Below, piece by piece: positions 29,180 through 44,592 of a stretch of 64,000 nucleotides of DNA (position 1 is the stretch's first letter; each line of letters begins with the position of its first letter). This stretch comes from TPA_inf: Saccharomyces. Its lineage: Eukaryota. The stretch lies in assembly GCA_000146045.2 (NCBI GenBank), contig BK006943.2, positions 352,001 to 416,000 of the forward strand. Direction: 5' to 3'. Both the position numbers and the translations under genes were made by a program. A model generated the notes under the pieces. That model did not search any database, had not been told where the DNA came from, and worked only from the letters and a program-made list of their open reading frames with translations.

Positions 29180-29326
29180 AAGTTGCTTTTTTATATAAAG
29201 GACACGAAAAGGGTTCTCTGGAAGATATAAATATGGCTATGTAATTCTAAAGATTAACGTGTTACTGTTTTACTTTTTTAAAGTCCCCAAGAGTAGTCTC
29301 AAGGGAAAAAGCGTATCAAACATACC

Positions 29327-31375
29327 ATGTTTTTCAACAGACTAAGCGCTGGCAAGCTGCTGGTACCACTCTCCGTGGTCCTGTACGCCCTTTTCGTGGT
29401 AATATTACCTTTACAGAATTCTTTCCACTCCTCCAATGTTTTAGTTAGAGGTGCCGATGATGTAGAAAACTACGGAACTGTTATCGGTATTGACTTAGGT
29501 ACTACTTATTCCTGTGTTGCTGTGATGAAAAATGGTAAGACTGAAATTCTTGCTAATGAGCAAGGTAACAGAATCACCCCATCTTACGTGGCATTCACCG
29601 ATGATGAAAGATTGATTGGTGATGCTGCAAAGAACCAAGTTGCTGCCAATCCTCAAAACACCATCTTCGACATTAAGAGATTGATCGGTTTGAAATATAA
29701 CGACAGATCTGTTCAGAAGGATATCAAGCACTTGCCATTTAATGTGGTTAATAAAGATGGGAAGCCCGCTGTAGAAGTAAGTGTCAAAGGAGAAAAGAAG
29801 GTTTTTACTCCAGAAGAAATTTCTGGTATGATCTTGGGTAAGATGAAACAAATTGCCGAAGATTATTTAGGCACTAAGGTTACCCATGCTGTCGTTACTG
29901 TTCCTGCTTATTTCAATGACGCGCAAAGACAAGCCACCAAGGATGCTGGTACCATCGCTGGTTTGAACGTTTTGAGAATTGTTAATGAACCAACCGCAGC
30001 CGCCATTGCCTACGGTTTGGATAAATCTGATAAGGAACATCAAATTATTGTTTATGATTTGGGTGGTGGTACTTTCGATGTCTCTCTATTGTCTATTGAA
30101 AACGGTGTTTTCGAAGTCCAAGCCACTTCTGGTGATACTCATTTAGGTGGTGAAGATTTTGACTATAAGATCGTTCGTCAATTGATAAAAGCTTTCAAGA
30201 AGAAGCATGGTATTGATGTGTCTGACAACAACAAGGCCCTAGCTAAATTGAAGAGAGAAGCTGAAAAGGCTAAACGTGCCTTGTCCAGCCAAATGTCCAC
30301 CCGTATTGAAATTGACTCCTTCGTTGATGGTATCGACTTAAGTGAAACCTTGACCAGAGCTAAGTTTGAGGAATTAAACCTAGATCTATTCAAGAAGACC
30401 TTGAAGCCTGTCGAGAAGGTTTTGCAAGATTCTGGTTTGGAAAAGAAGGATGTTGATGATATCGTTTTGGTTGGTGGTTCTACTAGAATTCCAAAGGTCC
30501 AACAATTGTTAGAATCATACTTTGATGGTAAGAAGGCCTCCAAGGGTATTAACCCAGATGAAGCTGTTGCATACGGTGCAGCCGTTCAAGCTGGTGTCTT
30601 ATCCGGTGAAGAAGGTGTCGAAGATATTGTTTTATTGGATGTCAACGCTTTGACTCTTGGTATTGAAACCACTGGTGGTGTCATGACTCCATTAATTAAG
30701 AGAAATACTGCTATTCCTACAAAGAAATCCCAAATTTTCTCTACTGCCGTTGACAACCAACCAACCGTTATGATCAAGGTATACGAGGGTGAAAGAGCCA
30801 TGTCTAAGGACAACAATCTATTAGGTAAGTTTGAATTAACCGGCATTCCACCAGCACCAAGAGGTGTACCTCAAATTGAAGTCACATTTGCACTTGACGC
30901 TAATGGTATTCTGAAGGTGTCTGCCACAGATAAGGGAACTGGTAAATCCGAATCTATCACCATCACTAACGATAAAGGTAGATTAACCCAAGAAGAGATT
31001 GATAGAATGGTTGAAGAGGCTGAAAAATTCGCTTCTGAAGACGCTTCTATCAAGGCCAAGGTTGAATCTAGAAACAAATTAGAAAACTACGCTCACTCTT
31101 TGAAAAACCAAGTTAATGGTGACCTAGGTGAAAAATTGGAAGAAGAAGACAAGGAAACCTTATTAGATGCTGCTAACGATGTTTTAGAATGGTTAGATGA
31201 TAACTTTGAAACCGCCATTGCTGAAGACTTTGATGAAAAGTTCGAATCTTTGTCCAAGGTCGCTTATCCAATTACTTCTAAGTTGTACGGAGGTGCTGAT
31301 GGTTCTGGTGCCGCTGATTATGACGACGAAGATGAAGATGACGATGGTGATTATTTCGAACACGACGAATTGTAG
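29327..31375 (+). CDS. KAR2: ER lumenal Hsp70 chaperone BiP, 682 aa, C-terminal HDEL
   Basis: Hsp70 signatures ([16 protein letters not shown]), N-terminal signal peptide, C-terminal FEHDEL. Confidence 0.95.
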
Positions 31376-31836: not shown

Positions 31837-34149
31837 ATGGCCAAAAAAAATAGATTGAACACAACTCAAAGAAAGACTTTACGTCAAAAGGAAGATGAGT
31901 ACATCGAAAACTTGAAAACCAAAATTGATGAGTATGACCCTAAGATAACCAAGGCCAAGTTTTTCAAAGATCTCCCCATTAGCGATCCCACATTAAAAGG
32001 TTTAAGAGAATCATCCTTTATAAAACTTACTGAGATCCAAGCCGATTCTATTCCCGTGTCCCTGCAAGGTCATGATGTATTGGCGGCCGCAAAGACAGGT
32101 TCCGGTAAGACATTAGCATTTTTAGTTCCAGTAATTGAAAAGCTATACCGCGAAAAATGGACCGAATTCGATGGGTTAGGTGCCCTTATCATATCTCCAA
32201 CAAGAGAGTTGGCTATGCAAATATATGAGGTTTTGACGAAAATAGGTAGTCACACTTCATTTTCAGCTGGGTTAGTTATCGGTGGTAAAGATGTTAAATT
32301 CGAACTAGAAAGGATATCAAGGATTAACATTCTTATCGGTACACCTGGTCGTATTTTACAACATTTAGATCAAGCCGTAGGTCTAAATACTTCCAATTTG
32401 CAGATGCTTGTTCTTGACGAAGCTGATAGATGTTTAGACATGGGGTTTAAAAAAACTCTGGATGCCATCGTAAGCACATTGTCACCATCTAGACAAACAC
32501 TTTTATTTTCAGCGACTCAATCACAATCTGTTGCAGACTTGGCTAGGCTTTCCTTGACAGATTATAAAACCGTTGGTACACATGATGTGATGGATGGGTC
32601 GGTTAACAAAGAAGCATCTACTCCAGAAACTTTGCAACAATTCTACATTGAAGTTCCTTTGGCAGATAAATTGGATATCCTTTTCAGTTTTATAAAATCA
32701 CATTTAAAATGCAAAATGATCGTTTTCTTATCAAGTTCCAAACAAGTGCATTTTGTCTATGAGACATTTAGGAAGATGCAGCCTGGTATTTCTTTAATGC
32801 ATTTACACGGTAGACAGAAACAACGTGCTAGGACAGAAACTTTGGACAAATTCAATCGTGCTCAACAGGTGTGTCTTTTTGCTACCGATGTCGTTGCTAG
32901 AGGTATTGACTTTCCTGCAGTCGATTGGGTTGTTCAAGTGGATTGTCCAGAGGACGTTGATACATATATCCACAGAGTCGGTAGATGTGCTCGTTACGGT
33001 AAAAAGGGTAAATCTTTAATCATGTTGACTCCACAAGAGCAGGAAGCGTTCCTAAAAAGACTTAACGCTAGAAAGATCGAACCAGGCAAACTTAATATAA
33101 AACAGTCAAAAAAGAAATCCATTAAACCACAATTGCAGTCATTATTATTCAAGGATCCAGAACTAAAATATCTAGGACAAAAGGCTTTTATATCGTACGT
33201 GAGATCTATATATGTGCAAAAGGACAAACAAGTTTTCAAATTCGATGAGTTACCAACAGAAGAATTCGCTTATTCTCTTGGTTTACCAGGGGCCCCAAAA
33301 ATCAAAATGAAGGGTATGAAGACCATTGAGCAGGCCAAAGAAAGAAAGAATGCTCCAAGACAGCTAGCTTTCTTATCAAAAGCAAATGAAGATGGTGAAG
33401 TAATTGAAGATAAGTCGAAACAACCAAGAACAAAATATGATAAAATGTTTGAACGTAAAAATCAAACCATCTTAAGTGAACACTATTTGAATATAACGAA
33501 GGCTCAAGCACAAGAAGACGAGGATGACGATTTCATTTCTGTCAAGCGTAAAGATCATGAAATAAATGAAGCTGAGTTACCAGCTCTAACTCTTCCAACT
33601 TCAAGGCGAGCACAGAAGAAAGCGCTTTCAAAGAAGGCATCTCTGGCCTCCAAGGGTAACGCTAGCAAATTAATATTTGATGATGAAGGCGAAGCCCATC
33701 CAGTTTATGAACTTGAAGATGAAGAAGAATTTCATAAGAGAGGTGATGCGGAGGTACAAAAGACAGAATTTTTAACTAAAGAATCTGCAGTAATGGCAGA
33801 CATTGACAATATTGATAAGCAGGTGGCTAAAGAAAAAAAACAAGAGAAGAAGAGAAAAAGACTAGAAGCCATGAGAAGGGAAATGGAGGCTGCTATGGAA
33901 GAAGAAATTTCTGGAGATGAAGAAGAAGGGAAGACAGTAGCATATTTAGGAACAGGAAACTTGAGCGATGATATGAGCGACGGTGATATGCCTGACTCGG
34001 AAGGCCACTTGAAAAAGAAAGCTAGAACTGTTGACTATTCCCACGGCCACAATCCATCCAATTCAGTTGATGATGACATTATTGAAGTGGAAGAACCACA
34101 AACTTTGGAGGATTTGGAATCTTTGACAGCTAAATTAATCCAGGGTTAA
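31837..34149 (+). CDS. HCA4: DEAD-box RNA helicase HCA4 (DBP4), 770 aa
   Basis: Motifs [30 protein letters not shown] in the translation. Confidence 0.9.
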
Positions 34150-34367: not shown

Positions 34368-35348
34368 TCACTTATGCTGCTCCAGGAGATGTAGGTATCT
34401 ATTCTTTCTTAACGGATCCGCATCTATTAATTGGACCAAATATTGTTCCGAGCTTCTTTCCGTTAGAGCTTCCTTTTCTTCCAGAATATCTTCGAGAACT
34501 AATAAAATTTTCAAGCACCAAATATTTTGCTTCCCGGAAAATTCAATTTCGTCATTATTTATTAACAGAATGTTTTCTCTCAAGTCTTTCAACATTTTAA
34601 GGTACTCTTGTTCGTCCAGAGTTTTACAAACAATGTCGTTTTTAATGAACCACTTGATATAAAACCATACGGATTGGTCTTCGGCGTCGGTAAACATAGC
34701 GTTGATGATATAAGATATTTCAGTCCGAATATACTCCTTTTGATTCCCAACCTCTCCTTTCTGAAACATTCTGCTTATGATCTGTACTCTTTGGTGCCAT
34801 GCAGAATAATTTGAAATGTTATTGTTAATCTTTATTGTTGTGTATTCAAACTCCTCCTTGTCAAGACTTTTATTAGTGATACTCTCTATGTTACCAACAA
34901 CTATTCTGCGGTAATGCCATCCGTGGTAATTTCTTGCATCTTGTTCCAATAACTTATTCACGACAGCAAGTTCAGTTTGCCACACTTTAGGGGAACTCGT
35001 AGGATAATGTTTCAAGACCCAAAGTCTGTGATTCCATATCCAATAGACTTTGGGGTAATCCTTCAATAGCATCATTACAAAAACTAACTCTTTATCCCAG
35101 AAAGGTATTTCCAACTCAGAAGCCAAACTCGCTATAATATCCCTTCTGTAATTCCAAATAGCATTAAATTCCGGATTTTTCTCAAGAAGTTCTGATGTTT
35201 TCTTCAGAGCTTCAATTGAGTAAATTTTTTCATCTCTCATATTCAAAACATTTTCAGTCAAGCTTCTATAATCATATATTTTCTTTTCGTCTTGAACTCT
35301 CTTTTGTCTCAGTAATTCCTTGGTCCACTGTTTCCTTTTAATGCCATG
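34368..35348 (-). CDS. BET4: Rab geranylgeranyltransferase alpha subunit BET4. Coordinates run from the first in-frame ATG at 35348 (M A F K R K Q W..., 326 aa). A possible ATG-only micro-exon at 35436..35438 followed by GTATGT is described in the findings.
   Basis: Prenyltransferase alpha repeats (WNYRR, WHYRR, AWHQR). The track ORF starts at a TTG; I extended it upstream in frame to ATGGCATTTAAAAGG. Confidence 0.75.
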   Translation of the reverse strand, partial: HGIKRKQWTKELLRQKRVQDEKKIYDYRSLTENVLNMRDEKIYSIEALKKTSELLEKNPEFNAIWNYRRDIIASLASELEIPFWDKELVFVMMLLKDYPKVYWIWNHRLWVLKHYPTSSPKVWQTELAVVNKLLEQDARNYHGWHYRRIVVGNIESITNKSLDKEEFEYTTIKINNNISNYSAWHQRVQIISRMFQKGEVGNQKEYIRTEISYIINAMFTDAEDQSVWFYIKWFIKNDIVCKTLDEQEYLKMLKDLRENILLINNDEIEFSGKQNIWCLKILLVLEDILEEKEALTERSSEQYLVQLIDADPLRKNRYLHLLEQHK

Positions 35349-35656
35349 CTGTTTAATGTGGCAAATATAAAAAATTGCTTGGTAGTCAGTAAAAAAAAGA
35401 ATTCATAATGTAACGAACATTTGAAGTGCACATACCATTGCTGACCTACTGCTTTATAGTATAAATTCAGTATACTAGGTATATGTGGCTCAAAAATGTG
35501 GTTTTTTTCTTTTTTGCCTTTAATTTTTTTCAAATGTTTACGTATGGTTTATGATTTAACATTTCAAGAATAGAAATCGCCCCGAAGAATGATTGATGTT
35601 AAATACTCGTACAAGAGTATTGAAAACCACTTCAAAGGGGCCCAATAGCACATTTA

Positions 35657-36384: not shown

Positions 36385-38853
36385 TCAAGTGCCTCTGTTA
36401 AAGAACCTTGAGTGAGAAACGAAGTCTTTGACACTCAAACTTTGCTTTTTTTGTTCTTCTTTTTGTTGTTGTATTTGAGGGGTGGATACTATCCTCTTCA
36501 TAACAGGTGGTGATATTTTCAGATCTTGCCTCACAAATTTTGACCAATTCGGATCTTGCATCCTTGCCAAGTTGTTTTCAAATTGACCCAAAAGTACCTT
36601 GTCCCACTTGAATATGAAAAGATCGCGATTACTGTCTGGCCTGCTGCCCTCGTCAGTGTCGTCTGTTTCTAAGTTGTAGGCACTCCATAGCTTTTTCCAT
36701 AATGCCAGGTCCCATGGAATGCCCTTTAAAGCGAGGACAAAAGACCATACCGCTGAATCAGGGTTATTATTGGTCAATTTGGAGTAGGTCTCGTAATAGT
36801 CATCAGCGGAATCCAGAGGAGCCATTAGAAGTTTAATAAACTTCAGCAGCTGGTCTATATTATTGTCTGCATGTCTTTTCACCCTCTTATAAGAGGTATT
36901 TTCTCGCAAGTCAGAATCGTTACTTACACTTTCTGGTAAAGTGTGAAAAATCTCCTTCAGCAATTCTAAATCAAGGAGAAGCTGCTCGCCAATGTTGACA
37001 ACAGTTCTGGTTTCAAATTTCCTTTTGCTGCCCGCCAGGGAAAAGGGTGGAACGGGCTGCAGAAGGCGGATGGTATTGCTTACAAAATTTGTAGTGATGA
37101 TATCAATCACCTTATCCAAGAAATTCCACTTATAAACATCTCTATTGAATTGCGACAAAATAAATGCCAAAGTCGAAGGTTGCTCTTGCTGTTGTTTAAT
37201 AGAGGCATCTGTTAATGCGGGCATTTTAAGTACGGATTTGAGGGTTACCATGTACCTGCTATAATCTTCTATCGCAGCATTTGACCAATCATTGTTGATA
37301 AACTCTCTCCATACAAAATTTAGATCTAAGGGTATGACACGGTTTAATAGAAAAGAAGTTCCTTTTGCTAGTAAATCGTCGTATATATTTTTCGTTTTCG
37401 TAAAACTGTTTGCCAGCTTTTCACGATTACCGCTGAATTCAGATAATTTATCCTCCAATTGATCTATAGTCGTGGCACAATAATCTGCAGTATTGATCAA
37501 TAAAACGGTATACTTGGCAGCTTCTAGCTTATCCTGGACTTCAATATTGTCGGGCAGCAGTAAAGGAAGAAGAATTTTTTGTGAGTAAGTTTGAAGCCAT
37601 CTACTGAAAAAATTTGCCAATGAAGTCAATATGCTATCATTGGCATTATTATCAATGAGCTCTAAGGTCTGAGTCAGTACGGAACGATATGTCCTGAAAA
37701 GGTCTGCACTCGAGGGTAACACGAGAGATTCTGTTTCATTAGATGGGTACTTCGGCTCACTCATATAAGAAAGAAATTTCTTTTCCATCATTTGGTTTTG
37801 GTGAGACACCCATAAAGTCAAATAAGGTTCGAAGCAGGAACTTAGTTTTGGTTCCTTAATTTTTTTTGAAAATCGTACGTCGATGTATTTTTCGAAATCT
37901 AGCGTCGATTGTAATGCTGTCATGAATAGATCAATGGAAGGGTTCTTGTCTTTGAATTCCCTTTTCAGAAGTGTCTGAAGGTCCTTGTGTGTAATGTGAT
38001 AAAAAGTGGTGGTCAATCTGACTGCCATTTCCCAGTCTTTTAAGAAATAGTCTGCGAACTTTGAATTGAAGTTATTAAGAATTTTTTTGAAGTAAATGTA
38101 TCTTCTCGATAAATTTTCTAGGGATCCGGCTTCATCGTCGACCCTAAATATCTCTTTCATTTCGAAGAGAAGTTTGTCCAAACACCAATCTATCATCTGG
38201 GCTCTCGTACTTGTATCGCAGTCGAGTAGCTCGCAGGCACCTTCGCGCAATTCCATAGTGAGTGCTGTATCATGCTCTGAGATATTGCCGCCGGAAAAGA
38301 GCGCATTGTAGTTTTGTTTAATTTTGGACAAAGTGTCTCCTTTCAGTCTTGAAATGGAGCTCAACAAATAGTTTATCTCGTCCAATGATTTGTAAGAGAT
38401 GAATGTGTTTTCAGCAAGCGAACACATTATCTTATAAGGGGACACCATTTTTTTGAATGAGCCCTGTGAGAGTAATTCATTGCATTGTATGTAACTGTCT
38501 GTCAATATCTTTAAATTTTGGAAAAGAGTCAAAGAGTGGGTGAGGTTTTTCTTGGCAATGTCCAGGTACGAGATACCTTCTGTCAGATTCGATATCGTCA
38601 ACTCGGTGGAGGCTGAGACATCTTGAGTTTCTTTGAAATCTTGGAAAACTTTCCTCAGAGAAGCCTCTATTTCAGCGGAATTTTTAGGGTGTTCCTTCAA
38701 TTCATTCTCTTCTTTGAGAATATCCTCTTGCAATTGCTTTTTGTAGCTTCTGGTAATACTGATCAGTTCATCTATGTTGTTCAGGGATTCTTTTGAAAAA
38801 AGTATATTGGTAATATCTTCCAGCGGGTCATAATCTACCGTACCTTCCAGCAT
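36385..38853 (-). CDS. VPS53: GARP complex subunit VPS53, 822 aa
   Basis: 822-aa minus-strand ORF at the expected position; coiled-coil N-terminus. Confidence 0.85.
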   Translation of the reverse strand: MLEGTVDYDPLEDITNILFSKESLNNIDELISITRSYKKQLQEDILKEENELKEHPKNSAEIEASLRKVFQDFKETQDVSASTELTISNLTEGISYLDIAKKNLTHSLTLFQNLKILTDSYIQCNELLSQGSFKKMVSPYKIMCSLAENTFISYKSLDEINYLLSSISRLKGDTLSKIKQNYNALFSGGNISEHDTALTMELREGACELLDCDTSTRAQMIDWCLDKLLFEMKEIFRVDDEAGSLENLSRRYIYFKKILNNFNSKFADYFLKDWEMAVRLTTTFYHITHKDLQTLLKREFKDKNPSIDLFMTALQSTLDFEKYIDVRFSKKIKEPKLSSCFEPYLTLWVSHQNQMMEKKFLSYMSEPKYPSNETESLVLPSSADLFRTYRSVLTQTLELIDNNANDSILTSLANFFSRWLQTYSQKILLPLLLPDNIEVQDKLEAAKYTVLLINTADYCATTIDQLEDKLSEFSGNREKLANSFTKTKNIYDDLLAKGTSFLLNRVIPLDLNFVWREFINNDWSNAAIEDYSRYMVTLKSVLKMPALTDASIKQQQEQPSTLAFILSQFNRDVYKWNFLDKVIDIITTNFVSNTIRLLQPVPPFSLAGSKRKFETRTVVNIGEQLLLDLELLKEIFHTLPESVSNDSDLRENTSYKRVKRHADNNIDQLLKFIKLLMAPLDSADDYYETYSKLTNNNPDSAVWSFVLALKGIPWDLALWKKLWSAYNLETDDTDEGSRPDSNRDLFIFKWDKVLLGQFENNLARMQDPNWSKFVRQDLKISPPVMKRIVSTPQIQQQKEEQKKQSLSVKDFVSHSRFFNRGT

Positions 38854-43930: not shown

Positions 43931-44592
43931 TTATTGCCCCGTTGCCCATTGTGCAAATCCGCCTTGAGCAAACGCTTGTAGTGCGCTTCCAAATCCAGTG
44001 GACGTTAGTCTTCCAATTTTACTATCTGTGGACTCGGCAGCTTTGTTGAGTTCGTCAACAGAAGCAACTATTCTGTTCACATTTGTTTCAATGACCATGC
44101 CCCCCTGCACGATTTCTTCTAATACACTTTCCAAAGTTTGCCAGTTAAAAATCAAATCAAGTTCATTGACTTCAGTAAAACAACGGTCCAATGATTCCAC
44201 AAAAGTTTGGATCAGATCTAATATGGCCAGTTCTGATTCTTGATCATCCACGATGAAAGTGAAATATAGTGTAGCGTAGTTTTTATAGATGATTTGAATA
44301 TCTTCATTGTTTACCTCATCATTATTATTTTCATTGCTTAACAGAAGCGATGGTGGCGTGACTAAAAAAGAACTTTGAAAATCGCTATTCCTTTGAGAAA
44401 TCAATTCATATACTTGCTCTAATAGCAGTTTTTGCTTTGGAAGGTCGACCGGCGTGTAGAATTTCACTAATCTTGGTTGGCATTTCTTATTGACTATACC
44501 AAAAATGATGAATTATGTTAGTAATGTATAATTTTGGCAGAAGAAAAGACCCTTGAGAAATCTTACATACATATTAGAACTGCATGAATCAT
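43931..44592 (-). CDS. APS3: AP-3 sigma subunit APS3, 194 aa, two exons. Exon 1 is 44571..44592 (ATGATTCATGCAGTTCTAATAT), the intron is 44494..44570 (77 nt, GTATGT...TACTAAC...TAG), and exon 2 is 43931..44493.
   Basis: The spliced product starts MIHAVLIFNKKCQPRLVKFYTPVD..., a typical sigma-adaptin N-terminus. 22 + 563 nt = 195 codons. Confidence 0.9.

Follow-up and report, generated by a model that had tools for sequence, protein, structure and literature searches.

The start-codon-only first coding exon and 87-nt intron of BET4 (YJL031C) on chromosome X of Saccharomyces cerevisiae

On the minus strand of the DNA studied here an ATG triplet is followed immediately by GTATGT, and a second ATG lies next to the acceptor at which such an intron would end. 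The question raised by this arrangement is which ATG initiates translation of BET4, and whether the sequence between them is an intron of the coding region, an intron of the 5′ untranslated region (UTR), or no functional intron at all. An earlier note, made from the letters of the sequence, had offered two options, a micro-exon or a 5′-UTR intron carrying an out-of-frame upstream AUG, and had regarded the 5′ structure of the gene as ambiguous. We conclude, with a probability of approximately 0.97, that the feature is the already annotated 87-nt intron of BET4, which follows the start codon, and that the product is a protein of 327 amino acid residues. The upstream ATG (35438-35436) is the BET4 start codon, whereas the downstream one, which is out of frame, arises by accident where a His codon meets a Gly codon. 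All positions are those of the window, by which we mean the whole stretch of 64,000 nucleotides that was analysed.

Gene identity, splice signals and reading frame

BET4 of S. cerevisiae chromosome X specifies the alpha subunit of Rab geranylgeranyltransferase. The gene order is HCA4-BET4-MAD2-VPS53, and the upstream region that BET4 shares with MAD2 measures 218 bp. The neighboring open reading frames (ORFs) and the features of BET4 are listed in Table 1. The sequence of the published BET4 intron (chrX 387348-387435) is identical to window positions 35435-35349, and therefore chromosome X coordinates are obtained by adding 352000 to those of the window.

Table 1. Positions in the window of BET4, its splice signals and the neighboring ORFs.
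Feature	Position	Strand	Basis or remark
DEAD-box helicase ORF	31837-34149	+	Pfam label via orthologous loci
Prenyltransferase-alpha ORF (BET4)	between helicase and HORMA ORFs	-	Pfam label via orthologous loci
BET4 exon 2: codons 2-327 and stop codon	34368..35348	-	starts CAT GGC ATT AAA AGG (H G I K R)
Out-of-frame ATG within codons 2-3 (C-ATG-G)	35345..35347	-	opens only MALKGNSGPRNY, then stop
3′ splice site CAG (AG 35350-35349)	35349..35351	-	sequence, conservation, junction reads
BET4 spliceosomal intron, 87 nt, GT-AG, phase 0, directly after ATG	35349..35435	-	sequence and published junction reads
Proximal cryptic 3′ splice site AAG (AG 35379-35378)	35378..35380	-	8 nt past branch A
Branch-site sequence TACTGAC, non-consensus G at position 5	35385..35391	-	sequence and conservation
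5′ splice site GTATGT, consensus	35430..35435	-	sequence and conservation
BET4 start codon ATG; entire coding part of exon 1	35436..35438	-	with exon 2 gives the 327-aa ORF
Minor alternative 5′ splice site GTAGGT, 5′ UTR	35444..35449	-	published junction reads
TATAAA	35453..35458	-	15-20 nt upstream of ATG; inside or at edge of transcribed leader
HORMA protein, 196 aa	35657-36247	+	Pfam label via orthologous loci
Vps53-like ORF	36385-38853	-	Pfam label via orthologous loci

The motifs that had been picked out earlier, namely GTATGT directly after ATG, TACTGAC, the acceptors aaacAG/C and AAG/CAA, and a TATA-like element, are all found on the minus strand. The distal acceptor had been recognized correctly but assigned to 35351..35350, one nucleotide away from its true position. 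Together these signals possess the characteristics of a standard GT-AG intron: the donor is GTATGT, a YAG lies at a workable distance (roughly 10-60 nt) from the branch site, in this case CAG 37 nt past the branch adenosine, an RNA junction is known from the literature, the position is conserved, and removal of the intron restores an ORF. The sole branch-like heptamer, TACTGAC, differs from TACTAAC by one mismatch, retains the branch adenosine and is situated more than 40 nt from the 5′ splice site; the branch adenosine is most probably 35386, which is 49 nt after the first base of the intron and 37 nt before the last. The composite pattern GTATGT-N30-60-TACTRAC-N8-38-YAG has two matches in the 64-kb window, where 0.07 are expected, and the second of these is the genuine intron of APS3. 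The set of splice signals in BET4 exceeds chance. A further copy of ATGGTATGT, the segment formed by the ATG and the 5′ splice site, occurs at 29320-29328 on the minus strand; it was rejected as the beginning of an intron since it is the reverse complement of plus-strand sequence. The latter overlaps what is presumably the start codon of KAR2 on the plus strand.

Joining the upstream ATG to the distal CAG acceptor creates an uninterrupted ORF of 327 codons, beginning ATG/CAT GGC ATT AAA AGG AAA CAG TGG, and no other acceptor inside the intron restores an ORF. Splicing to AAG/CAA, which had been expected to be in frame and to yield 338 residues, leads to a 23-aa dead end (MQFFIFATLNSMALKGNSGPRNY, then stop), and read-through of the unspliced RNA gives a peptide of 11 residues (MVCALQMFVTL). 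The ATG beside the acceptor had been taken for the main, in-frame ATG and located at 35348; it is actually 35347-35345, lies in the +1 frame relative to BET4, and reaches a stop after 12 residues. The N-terminus MAFKRKQW proposed on that basis is encoded nowhere, the spliced ORF giving MHGIKRKQW instead. There is likewise no upstream ORF (uORF) of the form ATG CAT GGC ATT TAA, as the sequence in question is ATT AAA. This uORF was read into the DNA because of a one-base frame slip, combined with the misreading of ATT AAA as ATT TAA. The supposed ambiguity of the 5′ structure disappears at the level of the sequence, where a single acceptor restores the ORF and this ORF begins with the conserved MHG.

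No additional ATG occurs in the 123 nt upstream of the BET4 start codon, so the ATG at 35438 is the first AUG for any plausible transcription start site in the region shared with MAD2. The coding part of exon 1 is this first AUG and nothing more. An intron of the 5′ UTR with an out-of-frame upstream AUG does not describe the locus: the start codon precedes the 5′ splice site, and once the mRNA has been spliced the upstream AUG heads the main ORF of 327 residues rather than a uORF.

Junction reads and minor isoforms

RNA evidence for the junction already exists. In the “Standard introns” section of S1 Table of Talkish 2019 the BET4 intron is recorded as chrX 387348-387435(-), 87 nt, with 1239 junction reads (319/274/339/307), the signals GTATGT, TACTGACT and CAG, a distance of 50 nt from the 5′ splice site to the branch point, and 37 nt from the branch point to the 3′ splice site. 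The “Ares intron” sequence given there is identical to window 35435-35349. The standard SGD/Ares intron of BET4 and the feature studied here are the identical object, matching in coordinates, length, signals and full sequence. The earlier note had chosen the same donor, branch sequence and acceptor (GTATGT ... TACTGAC ... AACAG/C), and its micro-exon option was the right one, the coding part of exon 1 being ATG only, with published junction reads at exactly this intron. Its proposed check by RNA-seq is answered by the same data, in which the 1239 reads join the ATG to the distal CAG acceptor. For the orthologous junction the read counts are 28 (S. mikatae) and 59 (S. bayanus) (Talkish 2019).

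Other studies are congruent with this. Table 2 of Ma and Xia 2011 (PMC3226532) gives the first coding exon of BET4 as AUG only (3 nt); YJL031C is entered with GTATGT and CAG in Kawashima et al. 2014; and a study combining metabolic labelling with targeted sequencing follows BET4 RNA over time in its unspliced, pre-first-step and lariat-intermediate forms. BET4 is absent from the text of the lariat-sequencing paper PMC4712674, and the exact spliced junction, GGTCAGCAATG joined to CATGGCATTAAAAGG, had no match among JGI metagenome contigs. The BET4 intron is already known, being part of the reference annotation and of every yeast intron catalogue.

Two minor isoforms are documented in Talkish 2019. 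The AAG acceptor is represented by 17 junction reads among the events overlapping standard introns, and the GTAGGT donor by 59 reads, which define a 101-nt intron (chrX 387348-387449) whose excision removes the BET4 start codon. Each accounts for 1-5% of the junctions, and the two together for approximately 6%, even in the absence of nonsense-mediated decay (NMD). The S. cerevisiae reads were obtained from a upf1-deletion strain, with and without rapamycin, and deficiency in NMD inflates minor isoforms; the conclusion on the main intron is unaffected by this background. From the GTAGGT reads it is evident that transcripts, and with them exon 1, reach upstream of 35449. These reads bear on the possibility of a transcription start downstream of 35430, the finding that had been named as refuting the intron; transcription would begin upstream of 35449.

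The events at this locus are as follows. Exon 1 comprises the 5′ leader and terminates in the start codon, directly after which comes an ordinary spliceosomal intron with the signals GTATGT, TACTGAC and CAG. Its removal connects AUG to CAU GGC AUU AAA AGG, and translation from the first AUG produces MHGIKRKQW and the remainder of the 327-residue protein. On rare occasions use of the AAG acceptor results in the 23-residue dead end, or use of the GTAGGT donor in loss of the start codon, and NMD is the presumed fate of the non-productive RNAs. This model draws upon established results: the reading frame, the exact match to the reference protein, junctions sequenced in three species, and splice signals and an intron position that are conserved. 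No evidence contradicting an exon 1 with ATG as its only codon was found.

Conservation of the intron and of the Bet4 N-terminus

The BET4 loci of S. cerevisiae, S. paradoxus, S. kudriavzevii, S. uvarum and S. mikatae were aligned, the last being represented by two Logan contigs in which the intron is identical to the entry in S6 Table of Talkish et al. The splice signals stand out in this alignment. All nine positions of the ATG-5′ splice site segment are invariant, as are 13 of the 14 positions comprising a T-run and the branch-site sequence, and both positions of the acceptor AG, where the invariance extends to AG/CA. By comparison, only 23% of the positions in the 5′ part of the intron, 48% of those between branch site and acceptor, and 24% of those in the 100 nt upstream are invariant. 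Intron lengths are 87, 88, 88, 92 and 94 nt, and the differences are not multiples of three. The change in length is confined to the 5′ side of the branch site, the distance from the branch adenosine to the acceptor being 37 nt in all five species. An invariant ATTTGCCAC block (35366-35358) lies between branch site and acceptor. Exon 2 evolves as coding sequence in the CAT-GGC-ATT frame, with 16, 8 and 31 variable sites at codon positions 1, 2 and 3, respectively. S. uvarum lacks the proximal AG.

A hairpin in the conserved branch-to-acceptor block that would hide the proximal AG was also considered. The block can form a stem of only 3-4 bp, GCA(A)/(T)TGC, with calculated energies of -2 to -7.6 kcal/mol, and no compensatory changes are seen in the invariant core of this stem; these results provide no structural evidence for such a fold.

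The intron is also found beyond the genus. In Vanderwaltozyma polyspora, Nakaseomyces glabratus and Torulaspora globosa the start codon and donor read ATG/GTATGT, and in Lachancea quebecensis ATG/GTAAGT; the introns measure 172, 157, 70 and 58 nt, respectively. The branch site is TACTAAC in the three other genera and AACTAAC in Lachancea, and the acceptor is followed by CAY GG in all four species, in which the first in-frame acceptor alone gives MHG[IV][KR]R. In total, a phase-0 intron after the ATG is conserved in eight other species of Saccharomycetaceae. Since the same phase-0 intron occurs in four further genera, its position is old, and TACTGAC is a Saccharomyces-specific variant.

The protein obtained by splicing is an exact match, over 327 residues, to “Rab geranylgeranyltransferase BET4” of S. 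cerevisiae S288C. Prenyltransferase alpha repeats (PF01239) are present in all BET4 homologs. Among solved structures, residues 1-316 of Bet4 align with residues 1-308 of 4ehm_A (“Geranylgeranyl transferase type-2 subunit alpha”; E = 2.6e-40), with MHG placed upon MHG, so that residue 1 of Bet4 corresponds to residue 1 of mammalian Rab geranylgeranyltransferase alpha (MHGRLKVK). The repeats and a similarity that begins at residue 1 identify the product as a Rab geranylgeranyltransferase alpha subunit. Most of the fungal homologs read begin with MHG[IV]KR, in a range that extends from Saccharomycetaceae to basidiomycetes (Agaricus, Coprinopsis, Vanrija). Because MHG is common to most fungal homologs and is aligned with the mammalian subunit, the residues encoded right after the acceptor are the genuine and ancient N-terminus of Bet4. 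The ATG that this MHG needs can be supplied only from the upstream exon.

Alternative readings and comparison with known introns

Two other accounts of the start site deserve consideration, each of which we regard as extremely improbable. According to one, the intron would belong to the 5′ UTR, the upstream ATG would head a 4-codon uORF, and translation would begin at the ATG beside the acceptor. Its attraction is the location of this ATG, a single nucleotide past the acceptor. It is contradicted by the frame and the missing TAA described above, and by S. kudriavzevii and S. mikatae, which have CAC GG in place of this ATG, whereas splicing of the upstream ATG yields the exact reference protein, whose N-terminus is conserved even in mammals. 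A one-base sequencing error in the window, which might have concealed a different frame, is excluded by the public strain sequences, which are identical. The other account dispenses with a functional intron and places the start inside or after it, giving a Bet4 of 290 residues from Met38, the next in-frame ATG, the form found in older annotations and in many automated ones. Entries of 290 aa are indeed common in strain assemblies (P0122 on 624 contigs), and the TATA-like TATAAA is close to the ATG. The 1239 junction reads for the intron speak against this account, however, and TTG stands in the place of the Met38 codon in S. paradoxus, S. mikatae, S. kudriavzevii and S. uvarum. Conservation with a third-position bias extends over codons 2-37, which can be aligned with the solved mammalian enzyme beginning at residue 1, and the four other Saccharomyces species of the alignment show no conservation of TATAAA. 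The 290-aa annotations fit an intron left unmodelled and do not constitute evidence of a second start.

The start-codon-only exon is not peculiar to BET4. In RPL30, RPS17A/B, MND1, BOS1, DCN1, QCR9, MPT5 and UBC12, too, the ATG is followed by the 5′ splice site of a phase-0 intron. BET4 differs from the other genes with ATG-only exons in that it is a low-expression, non-ribosomal gene with a non-consensus branch site; the weight-matrix score of its 5′ splice site, 4.30, is among the lowest in Table 2 of PMC3226532. The introns of MTR2, USV1, MCR1 and RPS25B share with that of BET4 a location near the 5′ end of the transcript. In these genes both splice sites are upstream of the start codon (PMC3226532 Table 1), whereas in BET4 the intron comes after the start codon, and splicing connects the latter with the ORF.

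The closest counterpart to the branch site is found in intron 1 of SUS1, which likewise has TACTGAC, with G next to the branch adenosine. The two introns differ in that the 5′ splice site of BET4 is the consensus GTATGT, and in that SUS1 has been linked to regulated splicing. Hossain et al. 2011 described TACTGAC as unique to SUS1 among S. cerevisiae introns; the same heptamer in BET4, conserved throughout the genus and assigned as the branch site by Talkish et al., contradicts this statement.

This likeness invites a further interpretation, which accepts the intron as real and holds that its weak, conserved branch site makes splicing rate-limiting and regulated, such that non-productive isoforms (the retained intron and those using the AAG acceptor or GTAGGT donor) tune the level of Bet4. 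We consider it possible but rather unlikely. In its favor, TACTGAC is present in all five Saccharomyces species, as against TACTAAC in three other genera and AACTAAC in Lachancea; the heptamer is functional in SUS1, where it is linked to regulated splicing; and a UACUGAC branch site worked in a reporter screen. From S1 Table of Talkish, with its column names as we interpret them (inex2 being log2 intron/exon 2), coverage of the BET4 intron is approximately 16-33% of that of exon 2 in the upf1-deletion strain, and the intron/junction ratio is lower by 0.63 log2 units following rapamycin (column names again as interpreted). The intron coverage and the drop with rapamycin fit a weak intron that is a poor competitor for the spliceosome. 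On the other hand, no experiments on the regulation of BET4 were found in the literature, the minor isoforms are scarce even in cells lacking NMD, and conservation of TACTGAC within one genus may reflect shared ancestry. By analogy with what has been proposed for SUS1, TACTGAC, the fixed 37-nt spacing and the invariant block might conceivably render splicing tunable and sensitive to competition for the spliceosome, and in this manner set the level of Bet4 and hence of Rab prenylation, a suggestion that we offer tentatively and to which we give rather little weight.

The biological weight of identifying an 87-nt intron after the BET4 start codon is small, as the intron is already in the reference annotation. 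A mildly useful by-product is the recognition of the rare TACTGAC in BET4 and of its conservation across the genus Saccharomyces. The case also carries a caution, in that a one-base frame slip made an ATG-only first exon look like a uORF puzzle. Automated annotations still miss or mis-splice this intron, as witnessed by the 290-aa Bet4 in many S. cerevisiae strain assemblies. A 317-aa Bet4 in one N. glabratus assembly is a further example of mis-annotation.

Truncated and probably misplaced Bet4 N-termini

The Bet4 protein is frequently found in Saccharomyces cerevisiae strain assemblies and public contigs as a 290-residue product beginning at Met38; entry P0122 of our protein collection by itself occurs on 624 contigs. 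This form is the outcome of leaving the first exon, which consists of the ATG only, unmodelled. The protein cluster concerned (P0122, P0123, P0124, P0128, P0129 and P0130) also contains versions of 320 and 204 residues. In Nakaseomyces glabratus the deposited model (orthologous locus L006, positions 801-1941) specifies 317 amino acids starting MELLKQ, the acceptor chosen giving an intron of 187 nt. The first in-frame acceptor defines an intron of 157 nt and yields the conserved N-terminus MHGVRRRQW; an error of splicing in the deposited model is therefore probable. In N. bracarensis the protein (P0014) begins MGLNDIQHGIRRKQW, a start that was probably read in from the intron's 3′ end.

Features of the BET4 locus and other intron-signal matches
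Feature	Window position	Strand	Basis
Minor alternative 5′ splice site GTAGGT, BET4 leader	35444-35449	−	Junction reads, Talkish S2 Table
A-rich block AAAGGCAAAAAAG, BET4-MAD2 intergenic region	about 35509-35523	−	
Branch sequence TACTGAC, BET4 intron	35385-35391	−	Same in five Saccharomyces species
ATTTGCCAC block, branch site to acceptor of BET4 intron	35358-35366	−	No variation in five Saccharomyces species
Second complete yeast intron signal match, GTATGT...TACTAAC...TAG	44494-44570	−	Pattern search of window
Further ATGGTATGT occurrence	29320-29328	−	Sequence match

Leader and divergent promoter

Use of the GTAGGT donor, for which 59 junction reads are recorded in a upf1-deletion strain (Talkish 2019), removes the BET4 start codon. 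These reads place the transcript start upstream of 35449; the TATAAA at 35458-35453 therefore lies at or within the transcribed leader of the transcripts spliced in this manner. Within the 218-bp divergent promoter region shared with MAD2, conservation among the Saccharomyces species compared is highest at AAAGGCAAAAAAG; the TATAAA closer to the BET4 ATG is not conserved across these species.

Branch site and intron 3′ segment

TACTGAC is the branch point of the BET4 intron according to Talkish 2019. Hossain et al. 2011 (PMC3201863) considered this sequence to be exclusive to SUS1 among S. cerevisiae introns; it is found in both genes. Other genera possess TACTAAC or AACTAAC at this position. 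The branch-to-acceptor spacing is constant (37 nt) in the five Saccharomyces species, where differences in intron length are confined to the part 5′ of the branch site. Folding of the ATTTGCCAC segment predicts nothing stronger than a weak hairpin with a 3-4 bp stem (GCA/TGC), in which covariation was looked for and none was found. Across 35538-35250, seven S. cerevisiae strain loci display a single polymorphism, T>C at 35413 in the 5′ part of the intron, and their splice signals are identical.

Other matches in the window

The further ATGGTATGT was rejected as an intron start and is regarded as a chance match; its reverse complement overlaps the plus-strand start ATGTTTTTCAACAG..., which we take to be that of KAR2. 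The second complete match interrupts the reading frame MIHAVLI|FNKKCQPRLVKFYTPVD and is the known intron of APS3 (YJL024C). Kawashima et al. 2014 give the intron signals of YJL024C as GTATGT/TAG.
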